Shown here piece by piece: positions 1,356 to 52,488 of a DNA stretch of 64,000 bases (positions within the stretch are counted from its first letter, which is position 1; the number at the start of each line of letters is the position of its first letter). The DNA lies in the NCBI GenBank assembly GCA_977018835.1, contig OZ361259.1, positions 3,596,001 to 3,660,000 on the forward strand. Direction: 5' to 3'. The notes under the pieces were generated by a model. That model ran no database searches and was not told where the DNA came from. It worked only from the letters and a program-made list of their open reading frames with translations. Made by a program: the position numbers and the translations under genes. Source of the stretch: Minutocellus sp. GHC0000111. Lineage: Eukaryota.

Positions 1356-4300
1356 GTGGTACCGGATGTGGCGCATTTTCATTACAACATACAGGAAATT
1401 ATCGTCTTTCCGTCACCCGAAACTATCGAATCTGTGGTATTTGCCGCCCGAGCCGTCTATCAGGCCCAATTGCTCACGGTCGACGAGTGTCGTCACATTA
1501 TTGACATGGCTCATGCGGCAGCGGAACGCAATGTGGAGTTCGCTTCGAAAGAAGCGGCAAAACAGGAGTTTCTTCGTGGTGCGGGTATAATATCGAGAGT
1601 AGATGATGAGGCCGATGACTTTATTCAGCAGCACCAGCGCAATAACAACGAAGGGCATGTCGTAGAGGGAAGGACATTGCTCGACGAGCCAAAAGGCTGG
1701 ACAAAGGATAGACACACGAGCTATCCAACGACAGATCTCAATCTGGTCACCGATCCTTTTACAACTAATGACCGAGACTTTCTCAAGAAGATACTGGATG
1801 CGAGGTTGGCACCACTGTTGGAACGAGTTTATGGAATAGCTCCAGGGGCCATTAGGGCTAATGACATGTTTGTCGTCCGACACGACTTCGAGAATGGCCA
1901 AAAATCATTGAGAGGCCACACGGATTCATCACATGTTTCATTTAATATCCTTCTGAACGATGAATTCAGCGGCGGTGGTACTAGGTGAGATCTGTTGTTA
2001 AAAAGGATTGATTTTCGGCAAGTTTGCGGACACTTGCAGCCAGCTTCTGATCGTTTCTCTAGATGTTAAGAGGGCGCTGTCCATAATTTTCCCCGTTTTT
2101 AATCCCCCTTATTCTTATTTCTTATGACGAGCGAAGCATGACAAAAACTCGACCCCACCATGAGAATCGCCGCTCTGCCCCCTCTTCATTACGATGAAGC
2201 GCAGCGCTGATAATAGTGCCGGCCCGGCCCACAACGCAGATACGCGGTTGCGGAAACTCAAGACAGATAACTCCGGTCGCCCGATTTTGCCTGTTGACAA
2301 GAAGAAAGAGAAGGCGGAGGACAAAGCGAAAGACGCCGTTACCGAGATACTGGAGGGCCTCGCCGTCACGTTGGAGAACGACCCGAACGGACAAGGACGA
2401 GAATTATGGAACAATCCCGGCGTCGGCGATGCACTTCAACATCTTGTCGTGCAGAAATTCATGAAGCGACTTGCGCACATGGCCTCATCTTCCGCTGCCT
2501 CCATCAGCTCCAAGTTCATTCCAGCCTGACTTCTAGAGTGCTTTCTGCCGGGGCACACAACTTCTGACCTCTGGCCGATCCAAGTGCAAAAAGAAAAAGG
2601 TTGGTTGCATCTGTCGCATCGCCATTCAAATGCAACGCCGAATCCACGCCGAACTGGCTCGGCCGAGAGATGCAGATTGCCGCACGATCGGTGGAGACTC
2701 TGCACGAAATCACACAGCTGCTTCATCTCAACCACAATTCTTTTGCCGTTGAGCTGCACGCCGGTGATGTTGGGACGATCGGCAGCGTTGGAGGTGGGAG
2801 TAGATGACCGACCGCCCGAAGAATTCTTGTCGGAACAATGTTTCAGCATCGCGTTGAGATGGGGCCCATGCTTTTCATCGTCCTGGAAGCAATTTTCAGG
2901 TGTGGTCGGCAGTGATCACGCGCCATTGCGTTGAGAGCGTGGGCTGGCGTCATCGGCTGTTCTGGAGAAGCGGCAGAAGGGCTTTGCAACGTCAAGGCCT
3001 GACATTTTCTCTGGACGTCGTCGTTGGATGTTGACCTCGTGTCGTGTTGGGACGTGTTGAAGAGATGATCGAACAACAGAGATCTCTAAGCTCGGCGACA
3101 CGCCACCGCGCATCAAGACACGGACAAGCTCATCAACAGTGTAGTAAGTACATCTGACGTCGTCTGGGAATGAGAGCAAGAGTGAGAGGATTGCCTCCTT
3201 GGCGTTAGCACGTGATGTTTCCATGGTTGTTTTTTTGTTTTGTGTCGGCTCTGGCGCAAGATGCGCTTTTCGATGAGAGCCTTGCAAAAAGAACCCCAAA
3301 TGAGGGAGACGTGCAAAAATACCCCAAACAAATATCCCCTTACCTCCCAACAGCAAAACTTCAAGATATCTTCCCACCAGCACCACCAATGCTGGTCATG
3401 CGTCGGCCGAGACTAACTTCGGTCGATCCGACGATGATGTGTGCGTCGACTGTTGCACCTCTGAGGGAGAGTTGATTCATCGAAGTTCCTCTGAACCAAG
3501 TGTTCCTGGAGGGATTTCCGACTTAATGCTGAAAGGAACGTCGATGACTCTTCGCCACTGTGGAGAGCGGCGGCCTTCGATGAGGAGCCCATTGTCACGT
3601 TGGAGTGCTAACTTTGGCGATGGTGCGAAGAAAAAACGGCACAAAACACGCATTTTGGGGGCTTCCTAAAAGTTATGGACAGCGCCCTCTTAAGAAAGAA
3701 CGCTGATTTCTTCATTGTGCTGTCATGGCCGAATTTCTCTTTTTCAACAAAATCCTTCTCTTCCAGATTCCACAATCGTGTCGCAGGAACACATCAGGAC
3801 GCAACGCCAAATCCAGGAGAAGTCATCATCAACAATGCCTTGGTTTTTCAGTGAGTTTTTCTTTGCTCTGCATTTTTATCTATCTCTTATTTTGTGCTTT
3901 TCAATGCTAATGATGAATGAACCCAAACCCTCACTCTTTCAACGATAAAAACAACCAAACCACAAATAATAATGAACAGTGAGGGGCTACCCGTCTCGAG
4001 TGGAACGAGATATATTCTGGTCGGATTCATGAGCGTCGACCGTGTCGATCCGATATCACAGGAAGGCACTGGGCTGGGCATCTTCGCCAGTTATTTCAGC
4101 CTGCCTTGGCTTCAAGTACAACTCAAGGACGCCATTTACAATTCCTACGAGCGGATGAATGACGGCGGTGAGCCAAAGTGGACCGACAATAAATACGTTC
4201 GCAATTTGTTCCGGGATGTCGTCTCGGCTGCCCAGCTTTTTGGGGACTTGTGGGCGCCTTATACACTGACAAAGTTGGTGGATGATGCGAATTCGAGTCG

Positions 4301-7722: not shown

Positions 7723-8346
7723 GTTGTTGTTTGATACTGCGTAGTGCATGTTCGTATAGGATTCCATTATTTACGATACTGCATCGTACATGATATGGAG
7801 TAAAACTCATCGTTTTGGGTAATGGAGGCGTCCGATCCGAAATTGATTATCTTTTCCACGCACTAATTTCTTTGGGAAGTCTTTTGTTCGTTTCCATCAA
7901 TTCTTCGCTCGCTGAAGAAGCAAGCGAAGGATCTGGATGTGTGGGAGCATTGGACTTGCATTATATTGTATGTCAGCGACTCGTTGCTCATCTCATAGGT
8001 TTGCATATAGCGTCAAGGCATTGGCTAGAATGGAGAGAATTGAATGGAAATCGGAAGAATTGCCGGCAGAGAGAATTCTACATGTACATGTACGGTAATT
8101 CTTTTCTGTTATTTTAAATTTCATCTCTCTTTCAATACTGGCACACTTCTTAGCTACTTATTAGTAACGGTAATCAATTACAATCTTAAAATAGGTGAAG
8201 CAGCAGAGTCATCATCAGTTGCAAACGAGCCGAATGGTACCGTTACCGTTACCACCACCAACCAACCAAACCTCAGCGGCGGCGTCATGCCGTGTGCGTT
8301 GTCATCAATCAAAAGTTCCGGAAGGCGTACGTACGTATGTACGTAC

Positions 8347-8407
8347 GTACGTACATAGAGCAACAAGGAAGAGAAGACCCGGAAGTGTCTGTCCATCATC
8401 CACAGAT
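8347..8407 (+). repeat. 61-bp direct repeat, copy 1 (copy 2 at 12723-12783); possible LTR fragment
   Basis: GTACGTACATAGAGCAACAAGGAAGAGAAGACCCGGAAGTGTCTGTCCATCATCCACAGAT is identical at both sites; copy 2 lies just upstream of a Copia gag. Confidence 0.85.
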
Positions 8408-8945: not shown

Positions 8946-9166
8946 ATGAAGAGCCACGCGTTTCTATTTTGCCTTGGCGCAATCATCGCCTCTGTTGATG
9001 CATTCGCAAGGCCTGTACGAGTATTTCATTGATCGGAAGCCGTAGCGTTGGCAGCGTAAGAAGCACCTCGTCGGTTGTTCATTCGCCAAGCACATCAACA
9101 ACAACGCAGTTGAATGCTGGGGCCAAGGGAGGCATCGAATTGGCGGGATTGCTGTACGACTCTACT
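8946..9166 (+). pseudogene. Truncated, frameshifted paralogue of exon 1 of the gene at 15124
   Basis: Shares ..DAFARP..SLIGSRS..HSP..TTQLNA..KGGIELAGLLYDST with 15124-15395; small insertion after 'gcaaggcct'; similarity ends abruptly at ~9166. Confidence 0.75.
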
Positions 9167-9167
9167 A

Positions 9168-12100
9168 GGTGAGACTCTTCTGTTTAGAATGGGATGATGC
9201 TCCTGGTTTCAGATGGTTTATTCAGAATGCTTTGCTTTCCCTCACAATAGGAGGGTCAGTAGGGTATCGCATAAAAGAGTGTCTAAAGTTAGCAGATCAT
9301 CGCGAGCCAGGATTTCGGCGATGCACACACTTGATATACCCACGGAAAATCACGAGGCTACCTCTCAGTCAGTTTTATGGACGCATTGCGTGATCTCATC
9401 AATTCTTGTGCTTCTTTTCTGGGCGCTTCTCTCAAAATCTGGCGATCCACATCGTGCCCTAACAATCGATTTTCTCTCTTTCTTATCTCTTGCTCTGAGT
9501 ACAGTCTATCCAATATTGCGAGCAAAAACTCAGCAGGATCGCATTGGCGGCCGAGAATGAAATTGCCATTTCCTAGGAGAGGTAATATGTCGGCCAAAGG
9601 CTGGCAGTCAGCGGGACCAGTAGGTGCTTGTAGGTATCGGGAGATCGTCGAGGACAGCGCGTTGGTGATAGGCTGGTCGCTGCGCTGGTCCTTTCCAGCC
9701 TTCAATACGTAAGCAGCCAGTTCGGGTGCTGCTGCGACGGCGCTGAGCACTGCATTCATGAAGCATACTTGCTGAAGATTGCCCTGAAAATTTACAAGGC
9801 CCTGAGGAATCCGACTGAGGTACTCGTAGATGATAGAGATATCGTTGTTCTCTGCATGGGCTTGGCGCTTGGGTGAAGAAACAAGCTCGCTTGCATCAGA
9901 TTCACCTGCAATACCTCCGCTGTCCTCGCTTAGCTTCCGCTTTGGACCTTCCGGCACCGGTGATACAGCAGCCGGCCGTTGTGTTGACATGGATGGATGG
10001 CTTGATACCAGGTCGAGCTGAGACGGTGCAATTGACTCGGACATTGCGGCTGCCGACGGATCACCAGCATCCATCTCACCAACCTTCGTCGCTGGACCAT
10101 TAGCATCTGGAGTAACAGCGGCCGGTCTTGGTGCTGAATGCTCATCTGGTTGAGAGTCAAGGGCCGGTACCCGTCGGGGAGTAAACGAATCAGATGAAGG
10201 GGCCGTGGTTGATTCGGCCCATGTGGCAATTGAAGTACAGATGGGAGACATCGGAATACACGTGCCCCCAAGGATCGGGGGCGACAGTGCAGCCAATGGG
10301 GCAGCCAATGGGGTAGGGGATATTGAAAATGGAAGGGCGGAAGATAGTGGGCTTCGATTCACATCTTCATCGTCGTCCTCCTCATCAGATTCATCGGCAA
10401 AATCTTGGAACCGGCGGCGCCGCCGTCCTATAATCTTGCCAGTAATGACGGCCGCTACTCCCAGAGCTACGGTCCCGGCGGCTCCGACAAGATTGGCAAA
10501 TGGAAAGAGCGACCCCGAGGAGGAGCGATGCTCGATACTGCATCGGCCAATACTTGCACCACCTGGCATATCCCGGAGTTCAATACTAATGGTTCTCGAA
10601 GAGCCGTCAGCAGAAGCAGGCACGGCTGCACCATGAACCGCTGATTCGCCCGCGCTGAACGACTTGCTGGTACCGATATCTGGATTGGTGTCACCAGTAC
10701 TGGCAGGGGCAGGATCATCTGCATTGCGATCCGACACCTCGGTGGTACTGATGCTGGAACCGCCGTTACCGGTAGGAGTAGACCCATCTGGATTACATGT
10801 GCATACGTGATCCGATGATTCAACATTCGTTCTGTTTCCACCAGCACTGGCAGAGGTAGGCTCATCTGTACCATCATCAGAAGATTGGCCGTCACCGATG
10901 CTCGTTGTGATGTCCCCTCTTCCGGTATCTTGCCCACTCGTTGTGGCATCGTCATTACCGATAGGAGCAGGGCCATCTGCACCATGATCCGGCGACTTGG
11001 CATTACTCGATGACATGAAATCACGAAGAGGAAGCCTCGATGCCTCCCACTCAAAATATTTGTCAGCACTGAGGCAGGCAGGGGTGGGTCTGGACTTGCA
11101 ATCTGCAAGGTCAAAATATTGCAGACGATGCTTGACTTGGCGATATTCGACCTGGTTGTAGTGGTGGGATAAATGCAAGCAGGATTGGCATTCATAGGGA
11201 TGAGATTATTGTAGATGTAAAGAATCGATAGACACAAGTGCTCGATCAACGTCATAATAAAATACATGCAACTGTGGACTCACCGGACCTGACTGAATAT
11301 TATCACCAGAAGATTCAACCACCGCGGTAGCACTTGGCGTTGGGACATTTACCGGAGCAAATTGCGCATCGGTCCCGGATGCACTTCTGCTCATCTTCCG
11401 TCGGCCGACACCCCGGTTCCTGTCCTCCGTGGCCTCAACGAAGATGGAACTAATAGCCGCCGCAAAAGGATTGTTGAAAGGCGGAGGTGTCCAACCGGCA
11501 TCTTCTACCGTATTGACGATGTGGTCTCTGCATTCACAACATAGCTCACTCCTTTCCAGGGCCGAGCCAGAGCAGCCACAACCTGAGTCAATCTGCCTCC
11601 TCCTAAGCGACTTGAGGATGTGGTGGGTGCCGGAAATTGCCTTGACACGCTTGACCAACCGGCGGGAGTAGTTCTTGGCCATTTCCTCCGCAATGCGCGG
11701 CAGTCTGCGGCCCTTTCGATGCATGAAGAATGCAATTGCCTCGGCGCCCGGGGGTAGCTCCGTACCATTCCGTATGGCGGAGAGAAACTTCTCCTCCTTG
11801 ATGAATTGTTCCATCTCCATCTTGCACAAAAGGTTCTCGACCTCCGCCTCCGCCGAAATGGAACCATTCGTCTTGCACGCGCGCTTATGATCGCTCATGG
11901 TTGGTTTGCGCTGCAGGTGTTGGAAGAGAGAGACGTATTAGTTGATGGCACAAATGGGTGAGATATTTAGCTCTGGCGACCGTCCACCACCAATAAAAGG
12001 CACAAGATATGCATGACATACGATTGTATCTTCTCCTCACCTTCTCGAGCAACTCGCGCAGCCCCTGGCTTGACGAGAGACTGGCGGACTTCAGCAGAGA

Positions 12101-12328: not shown

Positions 12329-12722
12329 TTCTCAATGGATTTGCCAGATATCAAAGGGATAGCTCCAGCAATTTGAAATAACCTTAGGCGGGCCCGCCAG
12401 CGTGCTGGCGCGCCCCGAAGGGAGCGAGCCTGCCAAGCTCTCGGCCAGGCAGGAACAGCTGGCGCATTCCTCCGCATCCGATGTCTCGGAGAGTGCCACC
12501 AAAGGCAGGCTATGACGGACGACGGAAAGACACGCTAGGCGGGAGAATAACCACTTCACAACAACTAGTGATTTGTAATTTCAAGATTGGAAAATTTGTG
12601 TAATTTTCTCTGTAACTTCACCGTAATTTTCTGTAATTTACGTAATTTGGTGAAACTTTGGTCACTCTCTGGCTAAAAAAATCTCACACAGGGGATCGGG
12701 TTACTTCGTAGTACGTGTACAT

Positions 12723-12783
12723 GTACGTACATAGAGCAACAAGGAAGAGAAGACCCGGAAGTGTCTGTCCATCATCCACAGAT
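12723..12783 (+). repeat. 61-bp direct repeat, copy 2
   Basis: Identical to 8347-8407. Confidence 0.85.
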
Positions 12784-13068: not shown

Positions 13069-14285
13069 GTGAATCCCGACGCAGTTTTTGGCCAACCTCT
13101 CGGCGCAGCGCCGATTCTCCCCACCAAGTTAATCACACGTATGAATGACCCAGGACAACCTCCCCAACACGAGCGTGTTGCCAAAGCGCTCAAGGAACTT
13201 CAACAAGCGGCGGCCAGCATTCCAGCAGGGGGGACAATGATGACCATAACCTCGGCCATTTGGGCCTCGTCGTCAGCGATGCCGAACACACCACCAAAAG
13301 TAACGGCCGACCACATGTGCCTCCGGCAAATCCTGGCCCCAGCCCCACCATTCCCGCCGTGGCCAATCTAGACCAACGCGATCGTGCAATCCGGGGATGT
13401 TACATCGAAAAGGGCCACTACAACTTGTACGAGCAAGTCAACACGGCGCTCAAGAATCTCCTCCTCGACTCGATCGACGCCGTCTACATCAATCATCTCG
13501 AAGATGACATGCTCGGTTTCCAGCCAGTCACCATCCGCCAAATCATCGACAGCATTACCGATCGCTACTTGAAATTCAACGAGACTCAGAAGGAGGAATT
13601 AGAGAAGCAGCTCGAGAAGCAGTGCGACGGGGGACCCATCGACACCCACATCGCCATATTCAACAAAGTCTTCAAGGCGTTTGAAACGGCCGGCGAACCC
13701 TTCACCAACAAGCAAAAGGTCTCCAAGTTCTACCGCTCCGTGCGCAGGTTCTCATTGGCAAAGAAGGCATGCGAGGACTGGGACGACAGACCGGAGGCCG
13801 AACGCACGTGGGCCAACATGCAGTCGGACTTCCGCGATTGGTATGATAAGAAGATGGCCAATACCACCACCGAAGCGGCAGGATATCATGGCGCGAATTT
13901 GGCCTCATCGGCCTCGGACGATCCATTTCTTTCTCGAGCCGATCTCCTTTTGGCTGATACCACCGAAGCCCTCAAGACCAACCAAGCCATGATGGCGAAC
14001 CTCGCCAAAAAGAGCAACGAGAAGGATGATACCATTGCCAAACTTCGCCAAGAAATAGCTTCACTCAAGGCCGAGAACCGCGTTCTGCGTGAGGGACGCA
14101 ACCATACTGGTGGCAGTGGAGGCTACCGCGGCGGTGGCCAACAGAACGGCGCCGGCCACTTCCCAGGCCAAGGTCCTAACCTCAACCGCCAGGAGAAGCG
14201 GGAACTGCAGTCGATCCTCCCCAGAGGCCATTATTGCCACACGTGCGGCTATTCGTCCAACCACCCCAGCTTTGAATGGCTTTAG
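13069..14285 (+). mobile_element. gag: Ty1/Copia (CoDi-like) LTR-retrotransposon gag remnant; pol absent
   Basis: AASIPAGG..HLGLVVS (frameshift at G-run ~13228), ALKNLLLDSIDAVYINHLED..LGF, coiled coil and C-terminal YCHTCG..H knuckle, as I recall for diatom Copia gag. Truncated just before the MITE. Confidence 0.7.
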
Positions 14286-14330
14286 GACCTCTTAGCAAGA
14301 ACAACAGCGGCCCCAAAGCAAAGATACGTA

Positions 14331-15090
14331 TATGTTAGTCCCAAAATGCGCACTGTCCCAGTTCGCGAACTGGGATCCCAGTTTGCGAACTAGGATTTAT
14401 TTATCCCAGTTTGGAAACTGGGATCACAGGCACAATCTCAGTTTGCAAACTGGGATCAATCGAGAAATAATGAATATTTAGCATGGATGATGTCGCCTTT
14501 GCTTCTCCTCACTTCATTTTTTCATAGTGAAGCAACACAGCCCAAACCTGGTCCAGACGTCCAGACGACATTAGTGCCGGAGCTGATGCTCAATAAATTG
14601 GCATTAGCTGATACAAAATACATATAGTGAATAAATAATAATATCTAGCTAGCTGCTTCTGGCAAATATAAGTCATGAACTGTACATGCATCTGTGCTAT
14701 GCCGGCATCATGTTGCTACTGTACCAGTACATGTAGCTTGCAAATTCAAGATATGATGCACAGTGCAACTTGCATTGTAGATAGATCTACCAGTACATAA
14801 TCATTGTGCATGAGCCAACACCGGCAGTAACAGTTACCATTCTGACACTTGCCGAGAATGCCAGTTTCCAAACTGGTATTCATTTTTGTTCCAGTTCGCG
14901 AACTCGTCTGGTTCCCAAATTCGGATTGGCGTGTTTATCTCAGTTTCCATTCTGGTAGTATCAGTGCGCAAACTCAGATCCTAGTTTGGGAACTGGGGCC
15001 CAGTGCGCAAACTGGGATAAATGAATCTCAGTTCGCAAACTGGGATCCCAGTTCGCGAACTGGGACAGTGCGCATTTTGGGACTAACATA
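14331..15090. mobile_element. 760-bp non-autonomous MITE with long TIRs and probable TA TSD
   Basis: TATGTTAGTCCCAAAATGCGCACTGTCCCAGTTCGCGAACTGGGATCCCAGTTTGCGAACT at the left end and its reverse complement at the right end (~60 bp perfect, ~90 bp imperfect). Internal CCCAGTT..AACTGGG subrepeats. TA at 14329-14330 and 15091-15092. Confidence 0.85.
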
Positions 15091-15123
15091 TACATGTAAT
15101 AGTCAAACAAACTACTAGTAAAC

Positions 15124-16477
15124 ATGACGAACCGCCCTTGCCACCTATTCCACCGGCCACAGTTTGTGATAGCATCCTTCTTTCTTGTAATCATCGCCTT
15201 GACAGATGCTTTCGCAAGGCCTATTTCGCTGATCGGAAGCCGCAGCTTCGGCTGCGTGAGTAGCCCTCCCGTTGGGGGCTACTCATGCCTTCCTCACATC
15301 CATTCGCCAACAACACAGTTAAACGCCAAGGGAGGCATCGAACTGGCGGGACTTCTGTACGACTCCACGTCTACTGCATTCGATTGTTGGGAGTGGTACG
15401 ATTCTCCATAATGCAAACACATCTGACTGACTCAAATTGTCCTTGATTTCTTTTTCACTATGATTTCAGGACGGCCAATTTGGGAGCACCAGCCGCGTTG
15501 GTTGCAGGAGCTGTGTTGGTGACGCTTTCGGAAACTAGAGAAACAATGCAGCCAAGAAGAAGTGATAAGCGATGGGTTCGCCTGGCCAAGCAGTGGTTTC
15601 GTTTCCAGGGTTAGGGTTACCCCCTAACCCTAACCCTAAGTGCAGAAGAGTGTCTGAAGCTAACAAATCTTGGCGATCCGGATGTCGCTGATAACTGCGA
15701 TACATAGGAATTCCTATACAAATGTGATTTTGTGATGCACCGCCAGATGAGTTAATAAATTATTGTCCGACCCACACTTTTTGTTTCATTTATTGTTTGA
15801 TGCATTGTTTATTGTGTCATCTAATCAAACCTTTCACGTAGATGTCCAGTTTCGCCCTTGAAGTTGTTTCAATCTTCGTGTCTACTGTTACTGGTACGGT
15901 ACTGCTGTCACATGGCGAGCAAGTTGCCAAGAAGGCGATAGGTTATGTGGCACCACTGGAACTGCTCCATCATCACCATGAGTTTGAGTATTTGACGATC
16001 CAAATTGGATTTTTGCAAGGCCTCTTCAACTGGCTTGTCGCCGTTGCGCTTGAACAGATCATCCCGAAAGAAAACGAAACAAAGAGTGCCCAGCGGATGA
16101 ACAAATGCATGGCCGCATGTATCGTGACGCTATGCATATGGATCCAAGGCTTCTACAACCATCAGTGAGTAGATATGCGGAGGCAGGCTGGGCGAGAAAC
16201 TTCAAAAAAAGCTTTTTTCTATGCATCAGATGGCTTACATGTACTTACTCATTGTTCTCTCTCTCCCATCAAACCAATCCCTTCATTTTTCACCAGTCTC
16301 GGCTTCTATTCAGATTACGCCCACGTTTTGAAAAGATATTCCATTCTTTTCATGAAGAGATATGTCCTCTGTTGGCCAATCCGGCCTCTGGCCCTGTTGT
16401 ACATCCCATCAACGATAGCTTCGCTGGTCTTGGCATGGAGGGCGTTCAACACCAAACCAGAAGAAGATGACGATTAG
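15124..16477 (+). pseudogene. Putative plastid-targeted multi-pass membrane protein, disrupted at 15607; exons 15124-15395, 15470-~15606, 15842-16164, 16297-16477
   Basis: Signal peptide + DAFARP; introns 1 and 3 splice in frame; exon 2 runs into telomere repeats and TAG, and I find no phase-0 GT donor for the acceptor at 15841; several hydrophobic segments. Confidence 0.6.
15607..15639. repeat. Head-to-head interstitial telomeric repeats (TTAGGG / CCCTAA)
   Basis: AGGGTTAGGGTTA-CCCCC-TAACCCTAACCCTAA: 13-bp perfect inverted repeat with a 5-nt loop. Confidence 0.85.
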
Positions 16478-16870
16478 AGGAGAGATATCACACGCCCGCA
16501 TCACAGTCACTTCGTGTGCACTGTATAGCTGTGTGCCATTTTTCGGCATCGACATGCTGGCTTAAGGCCCAGTTCTATACTTGCATTGCACAGGCGGAAT
16601 GCTCGCCCTTGTTCTATCTACCGGTACGTTGTATACTTTGATAAATCGGACATCGGGGCACCTTAGTACAGCCCGGACTATAGCTGTAAGTAAGTCGAAG
16701 ACATGTCAAAGATATTTTAATCTTGCTACTAAAGTAGCCGCCGAGACCGCCTGTGTATTGGAATAACTCCTACTACGTAGCTAGCGGCATTGCTAATTAG
16801 GAATTGTAATATGTATTGCAATATAATTGCCAGAGTAGAAAATTTATCTTCAGCAGGTAGACTGCAAGGC

Positions 16871-19800
16871 TTAATCATTTTCTGCATGGCTATATTCCAG
16901 CCGATGCATAGCACCAATGAGCTTGTTGATTCCGAGGCCAATGCCTCCAAATAATGCCGTCACCAACGCTGTTCCAATTGCACCAAGCCTTGCTGGCCTC
17001 AACACACCCACCAACGCAGCCGCAAAGTACGAAATCAATCTAACTTTGCGCAAATTCTTGAGGGCAACCATGCAGTTTTTGCAGTTCTTTGTGTGCGAGT
17101 TGTAGATATCAAACACGACCTCATTATCAACCGATGGCATCGAGGGGTTATTTTGATATGGGATTCGTCCGCCAGCTTTGTTGCGAATCCAATTCCGGAA
17201 GTTGATGACGCCTTTATCGGCCGTCATTGGCAGTACGGCCTTGGTGTAGTGATACGGCTCATCATTGTCATCAAATTGGAGCGTACTATACTCCTTCTTC
17301 TCGTGCATCATGCGTTCCTGAGCATGCAAAAAGAGTGCATCTTGATTGAGAAAGAGCCCAGCGACGACATGATTCAGCCACTTGGGCATCGGCAGGAGGA
17401 ACGCCTTGAGCAGAGCGGGCACCTGTCCATCCTCACCCTTGATGACAACCTGTCGGCCAATATGGTTACAAAAGCCAGGCCTGGAAGGGGAAGAGTACAG
17501 CTCCAGAATCGACACGGCGCCTTCACCGGCGGGTGATTCAATCTTGACCAAGGATGGAGCGACAAACTCTGTCGTAGAGGTCGGTGGTACTGCAGCTCCT
17601 TCCTCGGGATTTTGCTTCACACTAATCTTGAACCCATCTTTTGTTACTTGACGAACCGTATCAATGAAAAGTGGGTTGGTATCACCGTATCGATTGCCTA
17701 CGACATTGTGGTGGCTCGATGGGACATGCATGTGGCCGAGTAGAGTGTGCCGACCTCTTCTTCTTTTCACAGTGTTCGTCGGTTGCTTGGTTTTTGCGAG
17801 CCTGCGCTTGTGGGTAATAAAATCGAGGGGGGAGCACAAGCGGCCCGCCCGCCCCAGCATCATCAGCAACGCGACGAGGAGCGCAAGCAATCCGAAGCGA
17901 CGTTTGCAATACAGGACCATCCTCAAGCTGAGATGGTGGCCTTGAACGGCGAGGCGGGACTGCCAAGAAGCAGGTTTGCGTGACTTTTCAAACAACCGCG
18001 CCCCTCTCTAGCTAGCTAACTGACCAGTCTTTCAACTGAGAGTCGGCGGACGAGCAGCAGTCCCATCTTGGTCCGTTGTTGTGTTCCACGCCCGACTCGA
18101 CTCTTATTATGGACGAGCCGATGGTATTTGGGCTGGTGGAAAGGGCACGGTGCTGCGTACGATTTTTTTGATACCATTGCTGGCGTTCTGCCCAAGTGCT
18201 CATTCGCGGCGGTCTTGGAGGAGCTGCTGGTTTTCGGTACGGGTGAACCTTGCGTCCCATTGTTGCATGGCCAGTCGATGGAGCGAGGGCCTCGGGCCGG
18301 CATGCTGCCCAATCCCCCCTCCCTCTGTTCTAGACTAGTGCATGTATTGATTGGGATTGTATGGTCGGCCGATAGTGGTATTGGCGTCGGGCAACTTGGC
18401 GTCGTCGGTCTTCGGTCGGCAATGTCCGTTGGAAATATTCCGGCGGAAATTTCTCCGACCGAAAATTTCGGCCGCGCATGCGACAGTCATGTCTCATCCC
18501 CTCACTGTCTTCTTCGACGGCCCAACCCGTATCGGACCTACCACCGCTACTACCTCCCTAGTGTGATATGAAGCTATCAAACCTTGCCGCTGCCGAGCGT
18601 CAGGCCAGTCCTGATGCCAAGCGTCGTCGGGCCCTGGCCGCGGACCGCCGCTCCCGCCTCGACGATCGCGCCCGCCTCGGCCTCGGTGATACCGCCGCTT
18701 CGAGCAAGGGCAGGATGAAGAGGACCATCTGCCTCCTTGCCTGCGTCGCTCTGCTTGCTCCCGTCGATGGGAGCATCCGTTCCGCTCCGCTCCTTCGTCG
18801 TCGAGTTCCTGCTGTTCTGCACGATACCAACGCCGCCCTTGTCGGCATTGCCGACGGGAGCAACTCATCTGCTTCGACCGACAAGGACGATTGGTATGCT
18901 AGATACCGCGACCACCATGTTGCCTCTACGACCACTCGTGGCCATCTCCGCGGTCGCAATCTCGTTTCGGAGGACGACATCATCAACGCATATGCCAAAT
19001 CGTATGCCTCGGAGATTGCTGCGGTTATCACTACCGCTGCCGGTGATGCCGGTGATAACGAGAGCTCTTCCTTCGGTCTCGCTCACATCATCGGTGGCTT
19101 CATCTTGTGGGCTGGGCTTGCAGTTTTCTTTGCTGCCGCTCTTCAGATGATGGCCACCATCTCTGCTGATGTCGACGGCCTCGAATCTCATGAACACGAT
19201 GAGGATGATGATGAGGAGGACGATGAGGACTACGATGATGAAAATGCCGAGTCGGTGGATGAGGATGCGGCTGCCCCGTCAAGGGGCACTACTAGTAATC
19301 CTGACCTCGTCAGACAGGGGTGAGTACACCCAAAAGCAACATGTATGCCATATATATCAATTGCTATGCACATGCTCAACACTCAAACATATTTTTGTGC
19401 TGCCTTTACTTCTGATTACAATTTGATTTCTCAGCTTGAAGGCTTTGTGTGAGCTTGTGTCTCCCGAGAAAGCCGACCAGCTGTACAAGACTGCTCTGCA
19501 CAACATCGAGGAGGAGAGAAAGCTGAATTCTCAAGCTGATGTTGACACCGATGCTGATACTGACGCCAACGCCGATGCCAACGCAACTGCTTCTGCTTTG
19601 ACGAACTACGATCAGCTATGCCTTCAACAAGGAAGAGACTACTTTTCAAAATACTGCAGACACCAGGAGCAAAGGGGTGTGCCAGTCATCGTCCTGCGCA
19701 ATGATTTCATCGCCATCGTCAATGAGATTGAATGCGTGACCTGTGGTTGCGAAAGCCTCGGCGGTATCGACCGGTGGTTTACCTGGCTTCCGTACATTAT

Positions 19801-22800
19801 TGGTAAACTGGTGCCAATGTGTAAGTTTTGTAACCATGGAAAGGGAAACGATCGTCCCGAGGATTTCATTCAGCTGTGCCGCGATATCGAATCAGTTTGG
19901 AAATCACCTGAGCAGAGGCAAAGGCTCGAGAAATGGCAGAAGGAGATGGTCGAAAATCCGAACGAAACTCCCACCGCTATCAGCCCTGATGACTATTTTG
20001 GCTTCCCTGATACGGTAACGGAGGAAAATTGGTAGCAACACGTCCTGACTTCATACGGTGCCGATGTCCTCAAGGCTCTTGAGGAGAAGATCACCTCGCA
20101 CAGAAGTAACAACAAGAAGCGTCAACGCGAACGCCGTGGCAGTGAAGAACGCATCAAGATACACGATGACATGACCGACTTCGAGTTTGCTCGTCGGGCT
20201 GTCGGTCGCTGCTCTGGGTGTAACAAGGTAGCAGATCCCGCCAATTGCATTTTCCTCGGCTGGGACAGCATGCACAATGATATTGGGTACACGAAGCGCA
20301 ACGCATTTGGGATGTGCTTCAGGTGCAACAACTTCAAGTTGGGCTATTTCTTCTCGACATTTGTTGTGAAAGCTATGCAAATTTCGAAATGTACCGAAAG
20401 AGTGCCCATTGCTGAGCTTCGGCAGATTGCCCCTGTCGATGAATTTGCGCTCACCGACTTTGAGAGCGAATCTTTTGTTGATGTTGCAATCACGGCCATC
20501 AAGCGAACTGGGAAGAGCTTCAACAACATTGGATCGTATCCAAGGCACATTGGCAGCATCGACAAGGCCATTGCGGAAGCCGTCGTCCGTCGGAAGGAGG
20601 AAGCCTCGCGGGCTGCAGCGTACTACCCCGACCCGAATGGCGTGGTCTGGAAGAAACGAAGATATCTGTCCTCTTGGGGGGTGATTGATGGAATTTGGCT
20701 TGAAGACGAGGATGACACCCTCTTGGAGGTTGTAGCAACTGCTCTCAACGAAGATCGCGTGTCGCTCAGCATTCAGGAAGACGGTTCTCTGGATTTCGAT
20801 CAGGAGGACATTGAAGTTATCAGACTCGATCTTGCATCAAAGGGCATCAGAAGAATGCCCAAGTCTATTGAATCAAGACTTGGAGGTCAGGTCGGCAATA
20901 TCATCAACACATCTATTGTGCTTGACGATGGCGGTTGTGACGAGGCGAAGCCGAGCGCTGCAAAGGCAGCAGATGATAACGGCACAGGCCACGACTCTCC
21001 AACCGAGCTGAAGGTCAAGTTCAAGAAGAAGCCCCGATACGTCGCCGAGCGAACAGATCAAGAATATCTTCTCAGCGTGTGGTCCCTTTCAAACCCCGAT
21101 CCATATCATCACAACGATGTGCTTGCTGCGGTCAAGAAGAAAGCCGAGTCGCTTGGAGTTGCATTTAACACAGGCAAGTCGTCTTTTCAAAACTTCCGGC
21201 GCACGTACATGTCTCGTCTCTACGACGATGGAAAACTCACACTCTACGAGAGTCTTCGGAACAGAGCATCGTTTGCTCGATGCACAGCCTGCAACAAGGT
21301 CATGCCCCGAGCCCTAAAGAAAGGACAGCTCCCGGGCGAAAGAACATATTGCACGTGCGGAGTGTATGGGCGCTTTGAGCATCTCCCCCAGGCTCCATCC
21401 GCCGCCGAGTGTCCCAATCTGGATTTTTCTTCAGCAAGCAAAGAAAAGGCCAATGCGAGAAGCAAAAAACATATGGAGACCAGCAAGAAGAAGAAGAAGA
21501 AGAAGGGTAGCAAGAAGAGTGGAAACTAATAATAAATAATACGAATACGTTTAGCGTTTGCACAATGCCACACACATGTATCATGATTACCATTGGTAGA
21601 TAACCTTTGATGTCTGTTTTAGTGGATCTCGTCTACTACGGTGGTACATGTACCTGTACTAGAGTACCGGTGCATGTGTTCAATTTCTCAGCCCCCAATG
21701 CCCCCAACCCCCAACCATGGAAAAACGGTCCGTCCGTCGACCGTCGTCCGGCACTGCCGTCACCTTTTTTCATTCTCCGCTGCCGTTCCCCCGAGTCGAG
21801 TACCACCTTAAGGTACCGCTCCACACCAGGCAGCGGAGGATATTATCCACGGTGCAATGTCGTCCCCGACGAGTTTCGACTTCTTGCCGCGCCGGCTGGA
21901 GTCGATCGGCATATCTCCCCCGAAGAAGCGCACAAAGATCGCAAACCCGGCGCTGACTGCCAATCCCAAACAGCGTCCATCTCTCCATCTTCACAACCTT
22001 CAGCCCGAACTCCTGGGTATGATTCTCACTCTCCTTGCCCCCGACATTGCCAATCCGGTCCACGAGGATTGTGGCCTTGTCGATCTCTCTCGGGTATCCA
22101 AAATGTATCGCTCCATGGCTCTTGGTGGCCATGGGTGGAAAGCCATTTGCGTTGCGAGATGGACTGATAAGGTCGGGTTCAAGGACCGGCTCGCCAAGGC
22201 CGAAAAGGAGGCTGCCGAGGAGGTCGATACAAACGAAGGCATTCTTGGTAGTTATTGGTACAGGAAATTTGGTATTGAGGAGCGGAACGCATCGAGGAAT
22301 CGCATTACGCGATCGGAACTGAACGATAAAATTTTCAGTATTCGTCTCTGGTTCTTTGCCAAATCATACCCCCCATCGGTCAAAAGAGAGAAGGGAGTCG
22401 CACCCTCTGGTCTTCATGGCGCATCCATATCTGATAATATGCGATTCCTTCCCGGCGGTCGGCAAGTATCCGGCCTACCCGAACGATTCAGTACCATGTA
22501 TTATGAGATGAATGATGAGGGAACTGTCGTCAACTTCGGTACGCCTCTGAAGAACGGTACGAACCATCTTTTGCTGTCCCTCCAAGTCCATCGTAGATCA
22601 GATTGGGGATGGGAACTTCGCTCCAATCTGTATTGTATCAGATCTATATCTGGCGCTACGAATGTGGAAGAAGTTTGGAAGGAATATACATCTTGTCTTG
22701 TGGTGGAAAAAAGGAAGGATGGCACAAAAGTCAATCGAAGGAAGGTGGAGTACAATTACAGGCAGATTCCAAATGTCGATAATCTCAAAGAATATCTCGT

Positions 22801-25036
22801 TTGGTAATACAATGCTCTGCGGATAATAGCGCATAGATGTTGCCTCGTCTTTAAGTAGTACATATCGGTATCATTGGTACATGTACACACTCATGAGCAG
22901 GGGATTTGAATCGACAATTTTAGCTAGAATTTTAGCACTCCTAGCTGGCAGACTCTCTCCCGCCATTTATTTGAATTCCTCTTGGAAGCGGAGAGCAATC
23001 ATTTCCCTTTCAATAGGGAGCAGGAGTTCGTAAACCAAGACGAACCTACAAGAAACAAGTGTTGCAATGGTGCTTGATTCCTCAAAGGAGATGACAAGTG
23101 GCCAGTTGGCTCATGCCACGAAGAAGGCAAACGAGAGAGCGGCAGCGGCAGCGGCCCACGGCAACAGTCGTGGCATCACTTCGTACTTTGCCCCTCCCCC
23201 AGCCAATGACAGTCTCCCGCCCCCGCCAGTCGAGGTTGCGGCAGCAGCAGTGGACGAGGCCGCAACCGTCGTGAATGGGGGTATGGAGAATGCCGAGATT
23301 CCGGCCGAGGCGGTCCTGGCCGAGGCGGCCCCGGCCAATGTTAATTCCGAGGAGATGGGGACCGACGCACCTGCAGCCGAACTCGGCGCCGTGGGCATCA
23401 AGGAGTACGATCACTACCAGCCACAAGTCCCTTTTCCCTCACTCCTTGCAGTTCGATGGTATTGAGCTTCCAAAGAGATTCATCTGTACGCTTTGTGGGG
23501 ACAAGGATATCCTCAAAGGGCGACTTGAGGGTGCAAATGATTCCATCTCCCTTCTCAATACCAACCGCGAGGCAGGTGGAGGGAAATCTGTCTTTGATCA
23601 GTTCTCCGCCGACTTTTGGACTGGCATGCCGCTTTATGAGGCTTGTTTGGTAGGGCTGATCCAAAGCGATGATGTTAGAAGCACTTTGGGCGAAACCAAC
23701 AAGTCTCCCAGGAACTTCCGGGCTTCTAATGATGGCCACTTCCATGGTGTCGACTACTCTCGTGCTGCTTTGGGCACCGCCGTGAAAATGAATAAGAATG
23801 TGAATAAGCAGATGAAAATGCGTAGCCTGGCCCAATACATTGGGGTGAGCTTGTCGGAGTAATTACAGCATCTCTTGCATAACATAAAACGTTCAAAATT
23901 CGTCGTGTCCTATGAAATATACTTATACTATGATAATGTGCACCATCAACCACATTCTCAAGGAACGAGTCATGCGAGTAGGGAAGCTCTCGGAAGTTCC
24001 ATGTGCCGCAAAACAACCGATCTTCATCAATCGAATCGTCCAGCTCGTGGGGTAGTTTCATCATCGGTACCTCGCTCAATGCGCTTTCCAACCGAGCATC
24101 GTCACCGCTCTCGGGCCACACCCACAGAACTCCATTTACTACCTTGGCCGGAAAGCTGTTGCATTTGGACTTGGGATTGGACTGGATTCTCATAAACTCA
24201 TCCTCCGATTGAGCTTGAGGGACGGAGCAGAGATCGGCATCGCCCGTCCACCGCCAGGCGTGATATGAGCAGAGCAGAGTGCCATCGTCCTCAACTCTTC
24301 CTTCCGATAGAGGGACCTTGCGATGGGGACAGGAATCGGCAAATACCCGCCACGTACCGTCGGCACGCTTGGCACCACGTGGACGGTCCTTCTTGGATCC
24401 AAATTCCTCCGATCGGCCCTCCACCTTGCCATCATTCCAAACGACAAGGTCCATGTTCAAGAGCTTAAAGTTCTGGGGCTTCTCCCGATCGAGAAACTCG
24501 ACAGGAATGATTGGATACCATGCCTGCAAGGTGGGATATATACGAATAAGAAAGACGAAGGTTTTGCGGTGAATTGCCTTGATTCTATTGGTCTTACCCT
24601 CAAGATGACAATTTGATAAACGTTTACGTAGACTCTATTTATACATGTATATTACAAATCAGCAAGGAATGCCGTGGGATATGCAGGTAAAGTACGTGCT
24701 CCCAACTCTACACGTAAAACCCCAAAATCTAAAACGCACCTTGAACCAGTTGAATTCGTCAGAATCAAAAGACGGAGACTCATTGACATTGACAGCACTG
24801 TCAATCGCAGGGTTGTCTACTGATACCGATGCTGCCTCACCAACATCCGTGTTTGCTGTGGGCGTTGCAATATTATGAAGGAGTGTTGGAGAGGGCAGTC
24901 GATGATGGTCAGGTCTTTGGCAGAAAAGCTGAGAGTTCGCCGCCGGCGAGTGGGGCGAGAATGCCAACGCGTAGGATGACGCAAATATGAGGCTGGAGGC
25001 CGCTGAAATGGCGACCATATTGGCAATGATCCTCAT
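16871..25036 (-). CDS. Plastid Rieske mononuclear-iron oxygenase (pheophorbide a oxygenase/Tic55/PTC52 family), split by a 6.2-kb insertion; segments 25036-24740, 24523-23936, 17725-16871
   Basis: Presequence ..ALAFSP; NWFK|AWYP across intron 24739-24524; Rieske CPH..CSYHAW; iron motif ENVVDGAH continues as VPSSHH after the insertion; C-terminal SHTKNCKNC and TM helices. Both halves are stop-free. Confidence 0.85.
18568..21529 (+). CDS. ~950-codon protein with two hydrophobic segments and two tandem HNH-like (His-Me finger) modules; intron 19320-19434; one in-frame TAG at 20033-20035
   Basis: The GG|C splice joins ORFs 18568 and 19436. ORF 20171 is in the same frame with no other stop in between. 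Modules: CVTCG..GIDR..PY..KLVPMCKFCNHGK..EDFIQLC and CSGC..GWDSMHNDIGYTKRNAFGMCFRCNNFK..FV. Lys-rich C-terminal tail. Confidence 0.7.
21857..22807 (+). CDS. F-box-like protein
   Basis: LHNLQPELLGMILTLL..LVDLSRVSKMYRSMA..WKAICVARW; intact 316-aa ORF. Confidence 0.65.
   Translation: MSSPTSFDFLPRRLESIGISPPKKRTKIANPALTANPKQRPSLHLHNLQPELLGMILTLLAPDIANPVHEDCGLVDLSRVSKMYRSMALGGHGWKAICVARWTDKVGFKDRLAKAEKEAAEEVDTNEGILGSYWYRKFGIEERNASRNRITRSELNDKIFSIRLWFFAKSYPPSVKREKGVAPSGLHGASISDNMRFLPGGRQVSGLPERFSTMYYEMNDEGTVVNFGTPLKNGTNHLLLSLQVHRRSDWGWELRSNLYCIRSISGATNVEEVWKEYTSCLVVEKRKDGTKVNRRKVEYNYRQIPNVDNLKEYLVW
23067..23862 (+). CDS. Hypothetical protein with a degenerate HNH-like C-terminus (probable short intron ~23391-23451, or a frameshift)
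   Basis: Ala/Pro-rich N-terminus; acceptor 'tccttgcag' at 23451; C-terminus FWTGMPL..RASND..DY..KNVNKQMKMRSL resembles the 'C..tG.pm..SiDR..gY..N..K' pattern. Confidence 0.45.
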
Positions 25037-37726: not shown

Positions 37727-38154
37727 ATCAATTTATTCCGGCGGCAAAAACAGAATCGCCGAGTGAACGGGACGAGAAGGTTCCGGCGGCGCTGTATCTT
37801 TCGTTGCATTACACGCGTCTGAACAGATATTTGAATCGACTTCTGCCTTCTTCTTATGATGCGTTTCCATCAATTTATTCCGGCGGCAAAAACAGAATCG
37901 CCGAGTGAACGGGACGAGAAGGTTCCGGCGGCGCTGTATCTTTCGTTGCATTACACGCGTCTGAACAGATATTTGAATCGACTTCTGCCTTCTTCTTATG
38001 ATGCGTTTCCATCAATTTATTCCGGCGGCAAAAACAGAATCGCCGAGTGAACGGGACGAGAAGGTTCCGGCGGCGCTGTATCTTTCGTTGCATTACACGC
38101 GTCTGAACAGATATTTGAATCGACTTCTGCCTTCTTCTTATGATGCGTTTCCAT
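37727..38154. repeat. Three apparently identical 142-bp tandem copies of the 3' end (last ~45 codons + stop) of the NAGPA-family gene
   Basis: ATCAATTTATTCCGGCGG.. at 37727, 37869 and 38011. Confidence 0.95.
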
Positions 38155-40425: not shown

Positions 40426-43400
40426 CACAGCACCATCTGCCAGCCGGATGACTCGCATACTTTTGGTCGCACTTTCGGTGGCCGGCCGGCGCGCGAAGCA
40501 ACCGACCGGCGCGCCCAACGCGAGCCACCATGGCGGCAAAAATTCAAATTGCCGCCGCTACGTGCAGAACGAAGGCGATATCTCGCGCTGGTGTGGGAGA
40601 ATTACGGCACGAGACCAACCAGGTACTCCCGACATCCTGGTGATATTCCCATTGGTCTCGATCCATAATTCTCCATGAGCAAAAAAATAACGGCCGCAAT
40701 CCCGCGGTCAACACCGCAGACAGAATTGCGGTGCAGGACGCCCTGGCTGAACTACTCGTCCGTCTTCGCAGAAAGGAACTTCATTACTACAATTTCATCG
40801 GCAACAACAACGACTCCTTGATGAATGTGTTAGGATGCAGTCCCATCATGTACGGCGCCGTCATGTACACTGCGGGCATCTTGGGTTTGAAGAAGAAGAA
40901 ACACGAAGACTGCGACAGTGTTTTTTGTGAGGACAGACAACCAGAATGGATGGGATGAAATGGTATCAAGACACTGCCTTGCCGACGACGTTCAGCGAAC
41001 CCCATACAAAAAGAGCATATTTGTTCGCCTCGGTTCTATCAATCCTCGTGCAGCCGACGCTCTCCATGATGATGGATGGATGGCTTTCGACATGGTCACG
41101 GTCGAGCAACAATTTCGCCTCGAAATGCCGCCGCCGCGGCTCAATTTGACGAAGGCATGTAATGCATTCCTCAAGTCGGTCGCACCACATATATTGGTGG
41201 GATGTGCGGCGATGGACTACGAAATCAACAGGCAGATGTTGCTCGAGGCCCAGAAGTTCCCTGGTGGGTGTAATGGCCAGGACGATGGGTGGGACAATGA
41301 CGACGACGATGTTGGGACGGTGGGCACCCTGACCACGACGGAGACCGGCGAGATCAGTGAGGACGATGACGACGAAGACGAGGACTATGTGCCCTGTTAT
41401 AAGGACCAAGCTGATGTTGCAAGAGAGGACGCTACACATGAAGCATGCATGCAGCAGCACTTTGAGAAGAGTCGTCAGAAGCACGGTGATGGCGAGCCAG
41501 AGATGGGAGCTGTCGATGATGCCGAGGATGACGATGCCCCTCACTTCCATTTCCTGAAAAAGGCCGGCATTGAGGCGGCCGACTCAGGTAAAATAAGGGC
41601 AGTGCTGGCAGAATGCTGGAGAGCTTTATCTGTTAACATTTCTGATGGCAACAACAACAAGAAGAAACCAAGGACAACAGAGTTCATCCACCACAACACC
41701 TCCACCAAAGGAACTCTCCTAGAGCACAATCGCGAGGAAGATGGCATGACGGATGACGACATCAAAGAGCTCTGCAAAGCTTGCTCTAATTTGCTCCACA
41801 CTCTTGACGCAACATGTTCCAGGTTTCTGAAATGGTGAGTTGGTCCAGCCAGCTTTAGGTGAGCCGCTCGACCCAAAAACTGGACATTCGTCTTTCCGTC
41901 GTCCGTGTTTCCAACGAGGCGAAGTACGGGAAAAGTCGCAATTTCCTGCCGGACCAACTTTTCCCCCTGAAATATGGCAAAATGACTTGATCGAGCCGGC
42001 CTGCCTCGCTTACGTCCCCACTCTAGACACATTCAAGGTTGGGGACATCGAAGGTCCGGCTCGAAAATTCCGCACACATGCTGAGCTATCGAGGGGGAAA
42101 AATCACGCACAAAAATCGATGACGACGCACGAAAATTTGCTCTCATTGGCGGCCGATTCGGGGGCGGATACGAACAAAAACCACAACAATCAACCATACA
42201 AACATTTTCATACATATCTTGGGCGTGTGTCTCTGCATTTCTGGGTGGATTGGGCGGCTGTGGCTCTCACGGTATCACTTCTCATCCGCGGCCCTTTTTC
42301 GCGTACTCGAACACAGGTTGATTGTTTTGATTTATATTTTCTCATACAATAGCATGCCAATCAAGCTGAAACTTTCGCATGCGTAGCGCAATGGTATCGG
42401 CCAGCCTCGGGAATGCCCATATCTTACCTTGCAAATGTGTAGCGGCCAGGAGCGGGGGTCACCATGATGAGCTTCGTTCGGGAGAAAAAATGGACGGACG
42501 TCGGTCTTTCCGTCGTCCGACAACGCGAGCGAAGTTAGCAAAATCTCCAATGTCCTGAAGTGCCTCTCACCTGAAATGGGACCAACTCTGGTACATGAAA
42601 TGGGATGATGAGGCAAAGAAGGCTGTGAGAGAGCTTGAAGCATTGATTGCAAGTGCCCTCAAGCAAGCACGGGCAATCGGTATTAGCATAACGCCCAAGT
42701 GGCACTTACTCGAAGATCACATCTTGGACCAACACATTTGGCTAGTGAAGAATGGATGGGGCGGCGGCATCCATTGGCTCGACGAATCATTTGTAGAGCG
42801 AGCCCACCAAGAGGGCGTTAAGGAAGACCGTCGGACTCAGGGCGTCAAGGGATATGAGGCCCAACAGACGGCGCAGTTAAAGGCTGAGGAGAGGGCATCC
42901 AATCCAAAGGTCGAGGAGAGGCGGGAGCGAAACTCTCGGGTGGCAAGAACAAGGAAAAGGACAAGGACCGAAGAAGCTGTTAAAGCAGAAACTGATGACA
43001 AGCGCCAACAAATGATCATGATGGCCACCGATGGAGATGAGGATGTAGAGATGGGAGCAGGGCATGTATAAAATTAGAAAATGAAATTACACTACTACTA
43101 CACAATAACAAATGAATTGCATAAAAAATCCAACTTTTACAAACAGCATCGCGATTGAGCAAAAAAGTAAATGGTACACCCAAACAAACACATCACGTCC
43201 TTCTTAACTCACCCATTTATCTCCCAGACCAAAAAGTCCCTTTGTCGGGTTGATTGTTGCATAAACTTATCCCAATACTATCTGTCTCTCCTCGGGCGCA
43301 AAATTATTGTCGGATTTCCGGGAGGTCGAGTGGGGATGCGATCGGTCGGGATCAGCGAGAGTCGGTCATACGGGGGGTGCGGCGCAATCCCGGCAGTTTA

Positions 43401-51899: not shown

Positions 51900-51988
51900 C
51901 TTAAACAAGACTGCATATGATTTATTTTCTAACAGGTAGTTCATGACCGATCTGATACAAGCCCATGTAGAAAATTGTCATTTTGATG

Positions 51989-52341
51989 TCCAGATATGGT
52001 TATCCAGATAAGGTTATCCAGATAAGGTTATCCAGATAAGGTTATCCAGATAAGGTTATCCAGATAAGGTTATTCAGATAAGGTTATCCAGATAAGGTTA
52101 TCCGGATAAGGAGGTTATCCAGATAACTGTTGTCCAGATAAGGTTATCGATAACAGTTGTCCAGATACGGTTATCCAGATATGGTTATCCAGATAAGGTT
52201 ATCCAGACAAGGGTATCCAGATATGGTTATCCAGATAAGGTTATCCAGATAAGGTTATCCAGATATGGTTATGAGATTATCCAGATATGGTTATCCAGAC
52301 CAGATACATGTAAGGTTATCCAGATAAAGCTATCCAGATAA
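51989..52341. repeat. 14-bp minisatellite (GGTTATCCAGATAA)n, roughly 24 units
   Basis: Visible tandem array with variants (GATATGG, TCCGGA). Confidence 0.95.
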
Positions 52342-52488
52342 AGTTGTGTAGCTAACTGCAGAGCACGAACTCAAATGGAGCTGCTTGATGGTCTCAGAAT
52401 AGAGCCATTTGAAGAGCTCACAATATGCACGGAAAATCATGAAAACATATCAAGGACTTCGTGCAAAATTATAGATATCATCCGGACC

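Follow-up and report, generated by a model that had tools for sequence, protein, structure and literature searches.

A probable decaying tandem PacI-type nuclease gene on an insert that splits a Rieske oxygenase gene in Minutocellus

The insert and the split oxygenase gene

The window analyzed here is a 64,000-nucleotide stretch of Minutocellus sp. GHC0000111 (contig OZ361259.1, positions 3,596,001 to 3,660,000), and all coordinates below are positions in it. It contains a predicted nuclease gene on the plus strand (18568..21529) that has two PacI-type modules and lies within an insert of 6,207 bp (17729..23935). The insert interrupts a host gene on the minus strand that encodes a PaO-family Rieske oxygenase. 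The C-terminal half of the oxygenase, starting from its first iron-ligand His, occupies 16871..17728 (Pfam PaO, expectation value (E) 9e-11), and the N-terminal Rieske half occupies 23936..24490 (Pfam Rieske, E 4.7e-15), with further exons upstream. Both halves align end to end with a single Nostoc protein, the N-terminal half with residues 51-200 and the C-terminal half from residue 201 onward. The trinucleotide ATG, which is the His codon CAT on the minus strand, is present in one copy on each side of the insert (17726..17728 and 23936..23938, plus strand), and removal of 17729-23935 with one ATG copy restores the reading frame, giving a stop-free ENVVDGAH-VPSSHH. As read from these junctions, the insert splits the oxygenase exactly at the iron-ligand His codon, with a putative 3-nt target duplication.

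The insert is likely hemizygous, because the contig spanning it has about half the depth of the collapsed flank (84.8 versus 169.7 in run X1, 81.4 versus 172.6 in run X3) and no second copy over the gene was found at 80% likeness in runs X1, X2 or X4; an empty allele is inferred from the depth. The flanking allele pairs have depths of 89.6/110 in X1 and 92.1/94.8 in X3. The haplotypes differ by about 7-10% in the flank at 16000-17700 (in one example of 304 positions, 23 letters differ and 10 are gaps), a divergence that represents very high heterozygosity and possibly a hybrid.

No terminal inverted or direct repeats and no end hairpins were found at the insert ends, and no Rfam match was found in the insert. 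A DNA transposon with terminal inverted repeats (CACTA, Harbinger or MULE) was rejected, as there are no such repeats and no transposase match in Pfam, NCBIfam or Atlas. Helitrons have a 5' TC, a 3' hairpin followed by CTRR, and an A-T target; the insertion site can be read as A-T, but the ends are TG..AA or TT..CA, with no hairpin. The insert resembles the mirusvirus shintrons, in which an HNH-fold nuclease gene is nested in a conserved eukaryote-type gene (PMC12768974). Unlike a shintron, however, it is not excised exactly by any GT-AG pair: exact excisions end in CA..TG, AT..GC, TT..CA or TA..AT. There are 31 in-frame GT/GC-AG alternatives, and the 14 listed all alter the iron motif.

The nuclease gene and its relatives

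The nuclease gene appears to consist of two exons, 18568-19319 and 19435-21529, that join into a frame of 949 codons, terminal stop included, whose one internal stop is a TAG at codon 451 (20033-20035). The sequence-only reading of this DNA had connected three separately called open reading frames (ORFs) through one intron and one TAG, and the joined frame and the intron signals support it, with the splicing predicted. In base shuffles of exon 2, 0 of 1000 had one stop or fewer. The predicted 115-nt GT-AG intron (19320..19434), taken from splice-signal and composition analysis, has the donor GTGAGT, a branch-like CTGAT motif and the acceptor TCTCAG; its guanine-plus-cytosine content is 36%, compared with 55% and 50% in the flanks, and it has stops in all three frames. 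The first in-frame ATG of exon 2 lies only inside module 1, and module 1 therefore requires the upstream exon. A codon-usage score also favored the exon 1 frame, but this carries little weight, since four of its nine training stretches were out of frame.

All the parts of the architecture proposed earlier are present: two hydrophobic segments, an acidic run, both modules, a CxxC..CxC motif and a Lys tail. Exon 1 has 250 codons, with a signal-like segment after Met50 (18715), a membrane-like helix (19087-19143) and an acidic run (19168-19266). The Kyte-Doolittle 19-residue peaks of the joined protein are 1.66 at residue 52 and 2.34 at residue 174. Module 1 (19625..19918) has Asp (19769), Arg (19772), Tyr (19793), Asn (19832) and four zinc cysteines, and is followed by the TAG and then by module 2 (20096..20401). 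The remainder (20402..21529), delimited by hhalign and alignment, has a middle domain common to the relatives of about 650 residues, the C-terminal CxxC..CxC (21281-21358), a Lys-rich tail and a TAA.

Judged by motif and profile, both modules belong to group 20 of the His-Me finger nucleases, the PacI type, and are predicted to cleave DNA. The motif CxxC ... D-R-x6-Y ... CxxC-N occurs at PacI spacing, and the Asp, Tyr, Asn and four Cys are kept in both modules. The Tyr lies 8 residues past the Asp in both, as in the PacI chain, and is invariant in 27 of 27 rows; from its position in the omega loop we take it to be the catalytic Tyr of PacI. The Arg following the Asp is present in module 1, and in module 2 it is Ser in the window and run X5 and Arg in X1, X2, X4 and the relatives P0149 and P0001. 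Group 20 is mostly viral (78 viral, 4 bacterial and 6 eukaryotic members) and has a Tyr in place of the catalytic His (PMC5714182), a role with which PMC3384342 agrees, while the Asp and Asn are metal ligands (PMC4081073).

Several profile comparisons point to the same family. Module 1 matches phrog_1035 (E 1.3e-7). Module 1 first led to a phage protein, and a 24-module viral profile seeded from that protein ranks P0001 (E 1e-6), the module-1 ORF (2e-6) and the module-2 ORF (1.2e-4) highest among 1303 targets. PacI (3ldy) is matched with E 3.7e-7 by another profile, built from 17 viral modules without the window sequence. An alignment-based fold model of module 1 (predicted local distance difference test (pLDDT) 81) has PacI as its first PDB match (probability 0.99, E 0.067) and also matches proteins of crAssphage, Pandoravirus, Medusavirus and Clandestinovirus. 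The sequence-only reading had assigned the modules to an HNH family of phages and large DNA viruses, often in tandem. The beta-beta-alpha-metal fold (found for module 1 by this model, and for module 2 by profile only), the viral type and the tandem arrangement stand, but the classic HNH assignment gives way to the PacI type. A classic HNH or endonuclease VII enzyme with His as general base was rejected, as the modules have D-R and D-S/R instead of D-H and there is no Pfam HNH match. Direct searches found little: neither module matched Pfam or NCBIfam, a PDB sequence search gave one chance match only, and in tblastn against phages module 1 had a weak best match (E 0.02) and module 2 none. A candidate third module, degenerate and close to the C-terminus, was rejected with a score of less than zero bits, and blastn and tblastn found no second copy of the gene in the window.

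PacI (PDB 3ldy) is the best PDB match by both profile and fold, and like the window protein it has the same motif spacing and no catalytic His (PMC5714182). It differs in being a bacterial homodimer of a 142-residue single-module chain, whereas the window protein carries two modules in one chain and further domains in its middle and C-terminal parts, and its gene is nuclear and has an intron. Giant-virus tandem proteins and phage single-module proteins (annotated as HNH or endonuclease VII, phrog_1035) have the same module. PacI-like domains also occur in Skunavirus phages (PMC12724721). Polinton pPolB2 is similar in having a PacI-like HNH domain in a eukaryotic mobile element, but there the domain is single and inside a polymerase (bioRxiv 10.1101/2023.08.22.554363).

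A search of 1.84 billion representatives gave 147 matches. Tandem modules are found in 84 of 144 phmmer relatives (P0005-P0148) and in 37 of 79 ORFs from 80 metagenome loci; by sequence, tandem pairs are the normal giant-virus-like form. P0001 has 68-70% identity to the window protein from just past module 1 to the protein end, and is colinear across the TAG site. P0005 (a cluster of 6), P0061 and P0010/P0155 have the TEENW linker and the altered module-1 loop of the window protein. A decay of module 1 through loss of the loop D, G and N was ruled out, as P0005, P0061 and P0010 have the same changes. The middle domain is common to P0005, P0061 and the window (hhalign probability 95, E 3e-8), and in a FastTree phylogeny of 64 modules, drawn from the family together with the first 32 of those 144 relatives, module 1 groups with those of P0005, P0061 and P0010 at a support of 0.92. 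The whole-length relatives have about 650 residues and lie on contigs of less than 6 kb, and the structure neighbors of P0005 in Atlas are mostly Nucleocytoviricota clusters. This subfamily differs from the giant-virus proteins in its module spacing (165, 139 and 137 residues, compared with a median of 106), the TEENW linker, the altered module-1 loop and common C-terminal domains. No description of it was found in the open-access literature, and there it appears undescribed.

Some other loci carry related genes. The PacI-type gene of crAssphage cr53_1 (L001:361-981) is flanked by two DNA-polymerase fragments. Tandem PacI-type modules with a long C-terminal domain are found at L099-L101:2966-5233, and an Atlas cluster that resembles these in layout only carries Pfam DruA.

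The in-frame TAG, the first exon and competing explanations

The TAG at 20033..20035 is not an assembly error of the window: it is present, with no other letter, in contigs of 4 of 4 runs (two studies, X1 and X2 being one sample), three of which possibly derive from the source DNA of the window itself. At the aligned position P0001 has Lys, the P0005 cluster Glu and P0061 Arg, so that three of four related lineages do not conserve the stop; the fourth ends nearby, where the same TAG context is not visible. The CAA after the TAG is a conserved Gln codon, and P0001 has Gln there. Since the relatives have sense codons and the CAA is conserved, the TAG is most likely a nonsense lesion, probably recent, rather than a switch for read-through. 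Removal of the TAG by an intron was rejected: 52 in-frame candidates exist, but P0001 is colinear across the site. A recoded TAG was also rejected: TAG terminates other genes of the window, among them the proteasome-alpha and FAD-synthetase-like ORFs (named from their translations). Of the 21 rows in this stop-codon comparison, 2 had been translated in a wrong frame and were disregarded. The codon at 20267 in module 2 is Ser in the window and X5 and Arg in X1, X2, X4 and P0149; 224 of 225 modules have Arg here. The polymorphic Ser would fit decay after the stop.

None of the 7991 candidates scored (137-438 residues) is a homologue of exon 1. P0005, P0061 and P0010 start with Met about where exon 2 starts, and a 19-residue hydropathy of at least 1.6, which is 2.34 in exon 1, is reached in 2 of 144 relatives. 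The nuclease had been described as fused to a membrane anchor, and the hydrophobic segments are indeed present at this locus, but the whole-length relatives are without a membrane segment. For these reasons the anchor is best read as local, a putative captured host exon found in this lineage only. Diatom secretory-pathway proteins resemble exon 1 in outline (PMC5525289). Elsewhere in the window, a UCH-domain gene (9358-11937, minus strand; Pfam E 9e-6) has a hydrophobic helix and an acidic run before the UCH domain, in a layout like that of exon 1. This gene follows a partial duplicate, in which 8326-8407 and 8981-9165 match 12707-12783 and 15189-15368.

Taken together, the gene probably encodes a tandem PacI-type nuclease of viral origin that is decaying, and the 6.2-kb insert carrying it splits the host Rieske oxygenase gene, likely on one haplotype. 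The insert is best read as mobile or ectopic, with captured host exons. The intact ancestor of about 650 residues may have been a soluble, single-chain pseudo-dimer. Each module would bind zinc through its four Cys and one divalent metal through the Asp and Asn, with the Tyr serving as general base or nucleophile in a PacI-like manner. Each strand of a long, asymmetric DNA site would be cut by one of the modules, and the C-terminal zinc and Lys-rich part would aid DNA binding and nuclear import. The ORF may then have lost its own start and been spliced to a captured host-type exon with the signal-like segment and membrane helix, and a staggered break may have let the insert into the oxygenase gene. 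The ORF would then have been interrupted between its modules by a nonsense change, with the module 2 Arg lost as well in one allele. The gene would now yield a one-module protein of 450 residues, probably in small amounts if at all, and the other haplotype likely still carries the oxygenase.

A number of points weigh against this explanation. Both the splicing of the 115-nt intron and the expression of the gene are predictions. The fold model of module 1 rests on a viral alignment, making its PacI match partly circular, and a single-sequence model is poor (pLDDT 35.6). The tandem and conservation counts are also partly circular, because the relative sets were chosen using the window protein, and a pattern scan of metagenome, viral and prokaryote collections found no loci of whole-length relatives, although this is a weak negative. 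The frame beyond the TAG is open for 497 codons, and the called ORFs of P0010 and P0155 end just past the TEEN motif with different tails, which would fit a natural one-module form. The Ser at 20267 is seen only in the window and one X5 contig, and may be an error, because that contig is shallow (depth 5.8) and error-prone (4 single-base indels). By our estimate a 3-nt match at the junction would arise by chance in roughly 5% of cases, and a paralogous region or a very divergent allele could also account for the half depth.

A different and unlikely explanation is that the nuclease is the mobilizing enzyme of an undescribed, repeat-less nuclear element, a free-standing homing gene that cuts the empty oxygenase allele as a gene drive and was disarmed by the TAG, so that the locus stays hemizygous. 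The insertion in the iron-ligand His codon, the half depth of the insert and the position of the crAssphage family member between two DNA-polymerase fragments would all fit, and no other transposase was found in the insert in Pfam, NCBIfam or Atlas. However, homing copies are not known to create target duplications themselves, the case rests on a single locus whose insert holds host-like cargo, and no second insertion or conserved end was found. Precedents for such an arrangement are the mirusvirus shintrons (PMC12768974) and mobE, which splits nrdA of phage Aeh1 and is likewise a nuclease gene in an enzyme gene without intron or intein, with insert-derived tails on both halves (PMC3045599). 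mobE is a phage gene with activity shown, whereas the insert here lies in a eukaryotic nucleus, measures 6.2 kb and carries cargo genes and a broken, predicted nuclease. Also against homing, the single PacI-like enzyme put through a phage-exclusion assay is not one of the two that the passage on this assay names as active (PMC12724721).

A bolder form of the homing explanation is equally doubtful. It would make the insert a member of an undescribed class of algal nuclear mobile elements, without terminal repeats or a DDE enzyme, that spread by a single-chain tandem PacI-type tyrosine nuclease, aim at the best-conserved codons in host enzymes and take host exons along, here as a homing drive seen shortly after a nonsense mutation had frozen it on one haplotype.

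It is improbable that the gene encodes a functional membrane-anchored nuclease in which programmed read-through of the TAG gives one- and two-module products, as the sequence-only reading had offered alongside a lesion. This would agree with the good splice signals, the two hydrophobic segments, the D, R, Y and N kept in module 1, the TAG common to all four runs, the open frame past it, and the ends of P0010 and P0155 close to the site. Yet the sense codons in three of the four lineages make read-through unlikely, as does the conserved Gln codon, and no RNA structure was found 3' of the TAG (z -0.22). The motif CARYYA promotes read-through, and TAG-CAA-CAC fits only 4 of its 6 positions. A conserved anchor is unlikely too, as it is found in no relative.

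Finally, a rescue of the oxygenase in pieces is very improbable, in which the insert ends would give a C-terminal tail (69 codons) to one half and a targeting leader (64 codons) to the other, and the halves would reassemble. The leader (17729..17920, minus strand) is ATG-led, signal-peptide-like and in frame with the PaO C-terminal half, and its best 12-mer hydropathy of 3.18 was reached by 0 of 2000 dinucleotide shuffles, with a threshold set after the value was seen; 11 of 975 comparable Met starts in the window have such a leader. The duplicated His codon leaves H-x4-H on the C-terminal half, but the bridging Asp remains on the other half, an intact allele likely exists, and the leader may be a captured 5' end, one in three of which would be in frame by chance. 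It is also without the Phe-led plastid motif that we take to be in the N-terminal half. A precedent is again the split nrdA (PMC3045599). The leader and exon 1 look like a captured head-to-head pair of host 5' ends.

Surrounding sequence and implications

The insert carries two passengers on the plus strand. The first (21857..22807) is a gene with a weak F-box-like start (Pfam E 0.13, below the cut-off). The second (23067..23862) is an ORF in two frames, with a frameshift or intron near 23450, and has no match in Pfam, NCBIfam or Atlas. No polymerase, integrase or capsid genes were seen in the insert. Upstream of the F-box-like gene, 21770-21849 matches other contigs (X1, X3 and X5) with long loose ends, and we read it as a dispersed repeat or paralogous promoter. 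An imperfect DNA hairpin lies 5' of exon 1 (18403..18478; z -3.62, 0 of 200 shuffles).

The window as a whole is gene-dense eukaryotic DNA with short introns. It includes a light-harvesting protein gene (Pfam E 9e-32), whose leader we take to be of the ASAFAP type and which by itself indicates a diatom or an alga related to diatoms. A MITE-like element (miniature inverted-repeat transposable element; 14328-15093) has terminal inverted repeats of 95 nt (94%) and, in its interior, palindromic repeats of the form CCCAGTT..AACTGGG, and adjoins an ORF (13149-14285) that is gag-like by reading. Two probable transposase fragments are present, one with a weak Mutator-like match (2436-3395, minus strand; E 0.024) and one with a TPKWHLLEDH motif (42559-43071, plus strand), presumably like that of Transib/RAG-type enzymes. 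Tandem arrays lie at 59587-60902, 37727-38154 and 51987-52345, with periods of about 188, about 142 and a shorter unit.

The locus points to adaptation of a group 20 nuclease to the nucleus of a eukaryote, its gene having an intron and a first exon of host type. The clean insertion in an iron-ligand codon is a defined candidate target site, and the targets of tandem giant-virus PacI-like proteins are therefore testable. If the family mobilizes such inserts, it would represent a new route of gene disruption and capture in diatoms; if it does not, the gene would be an ordinary decaying passenger.

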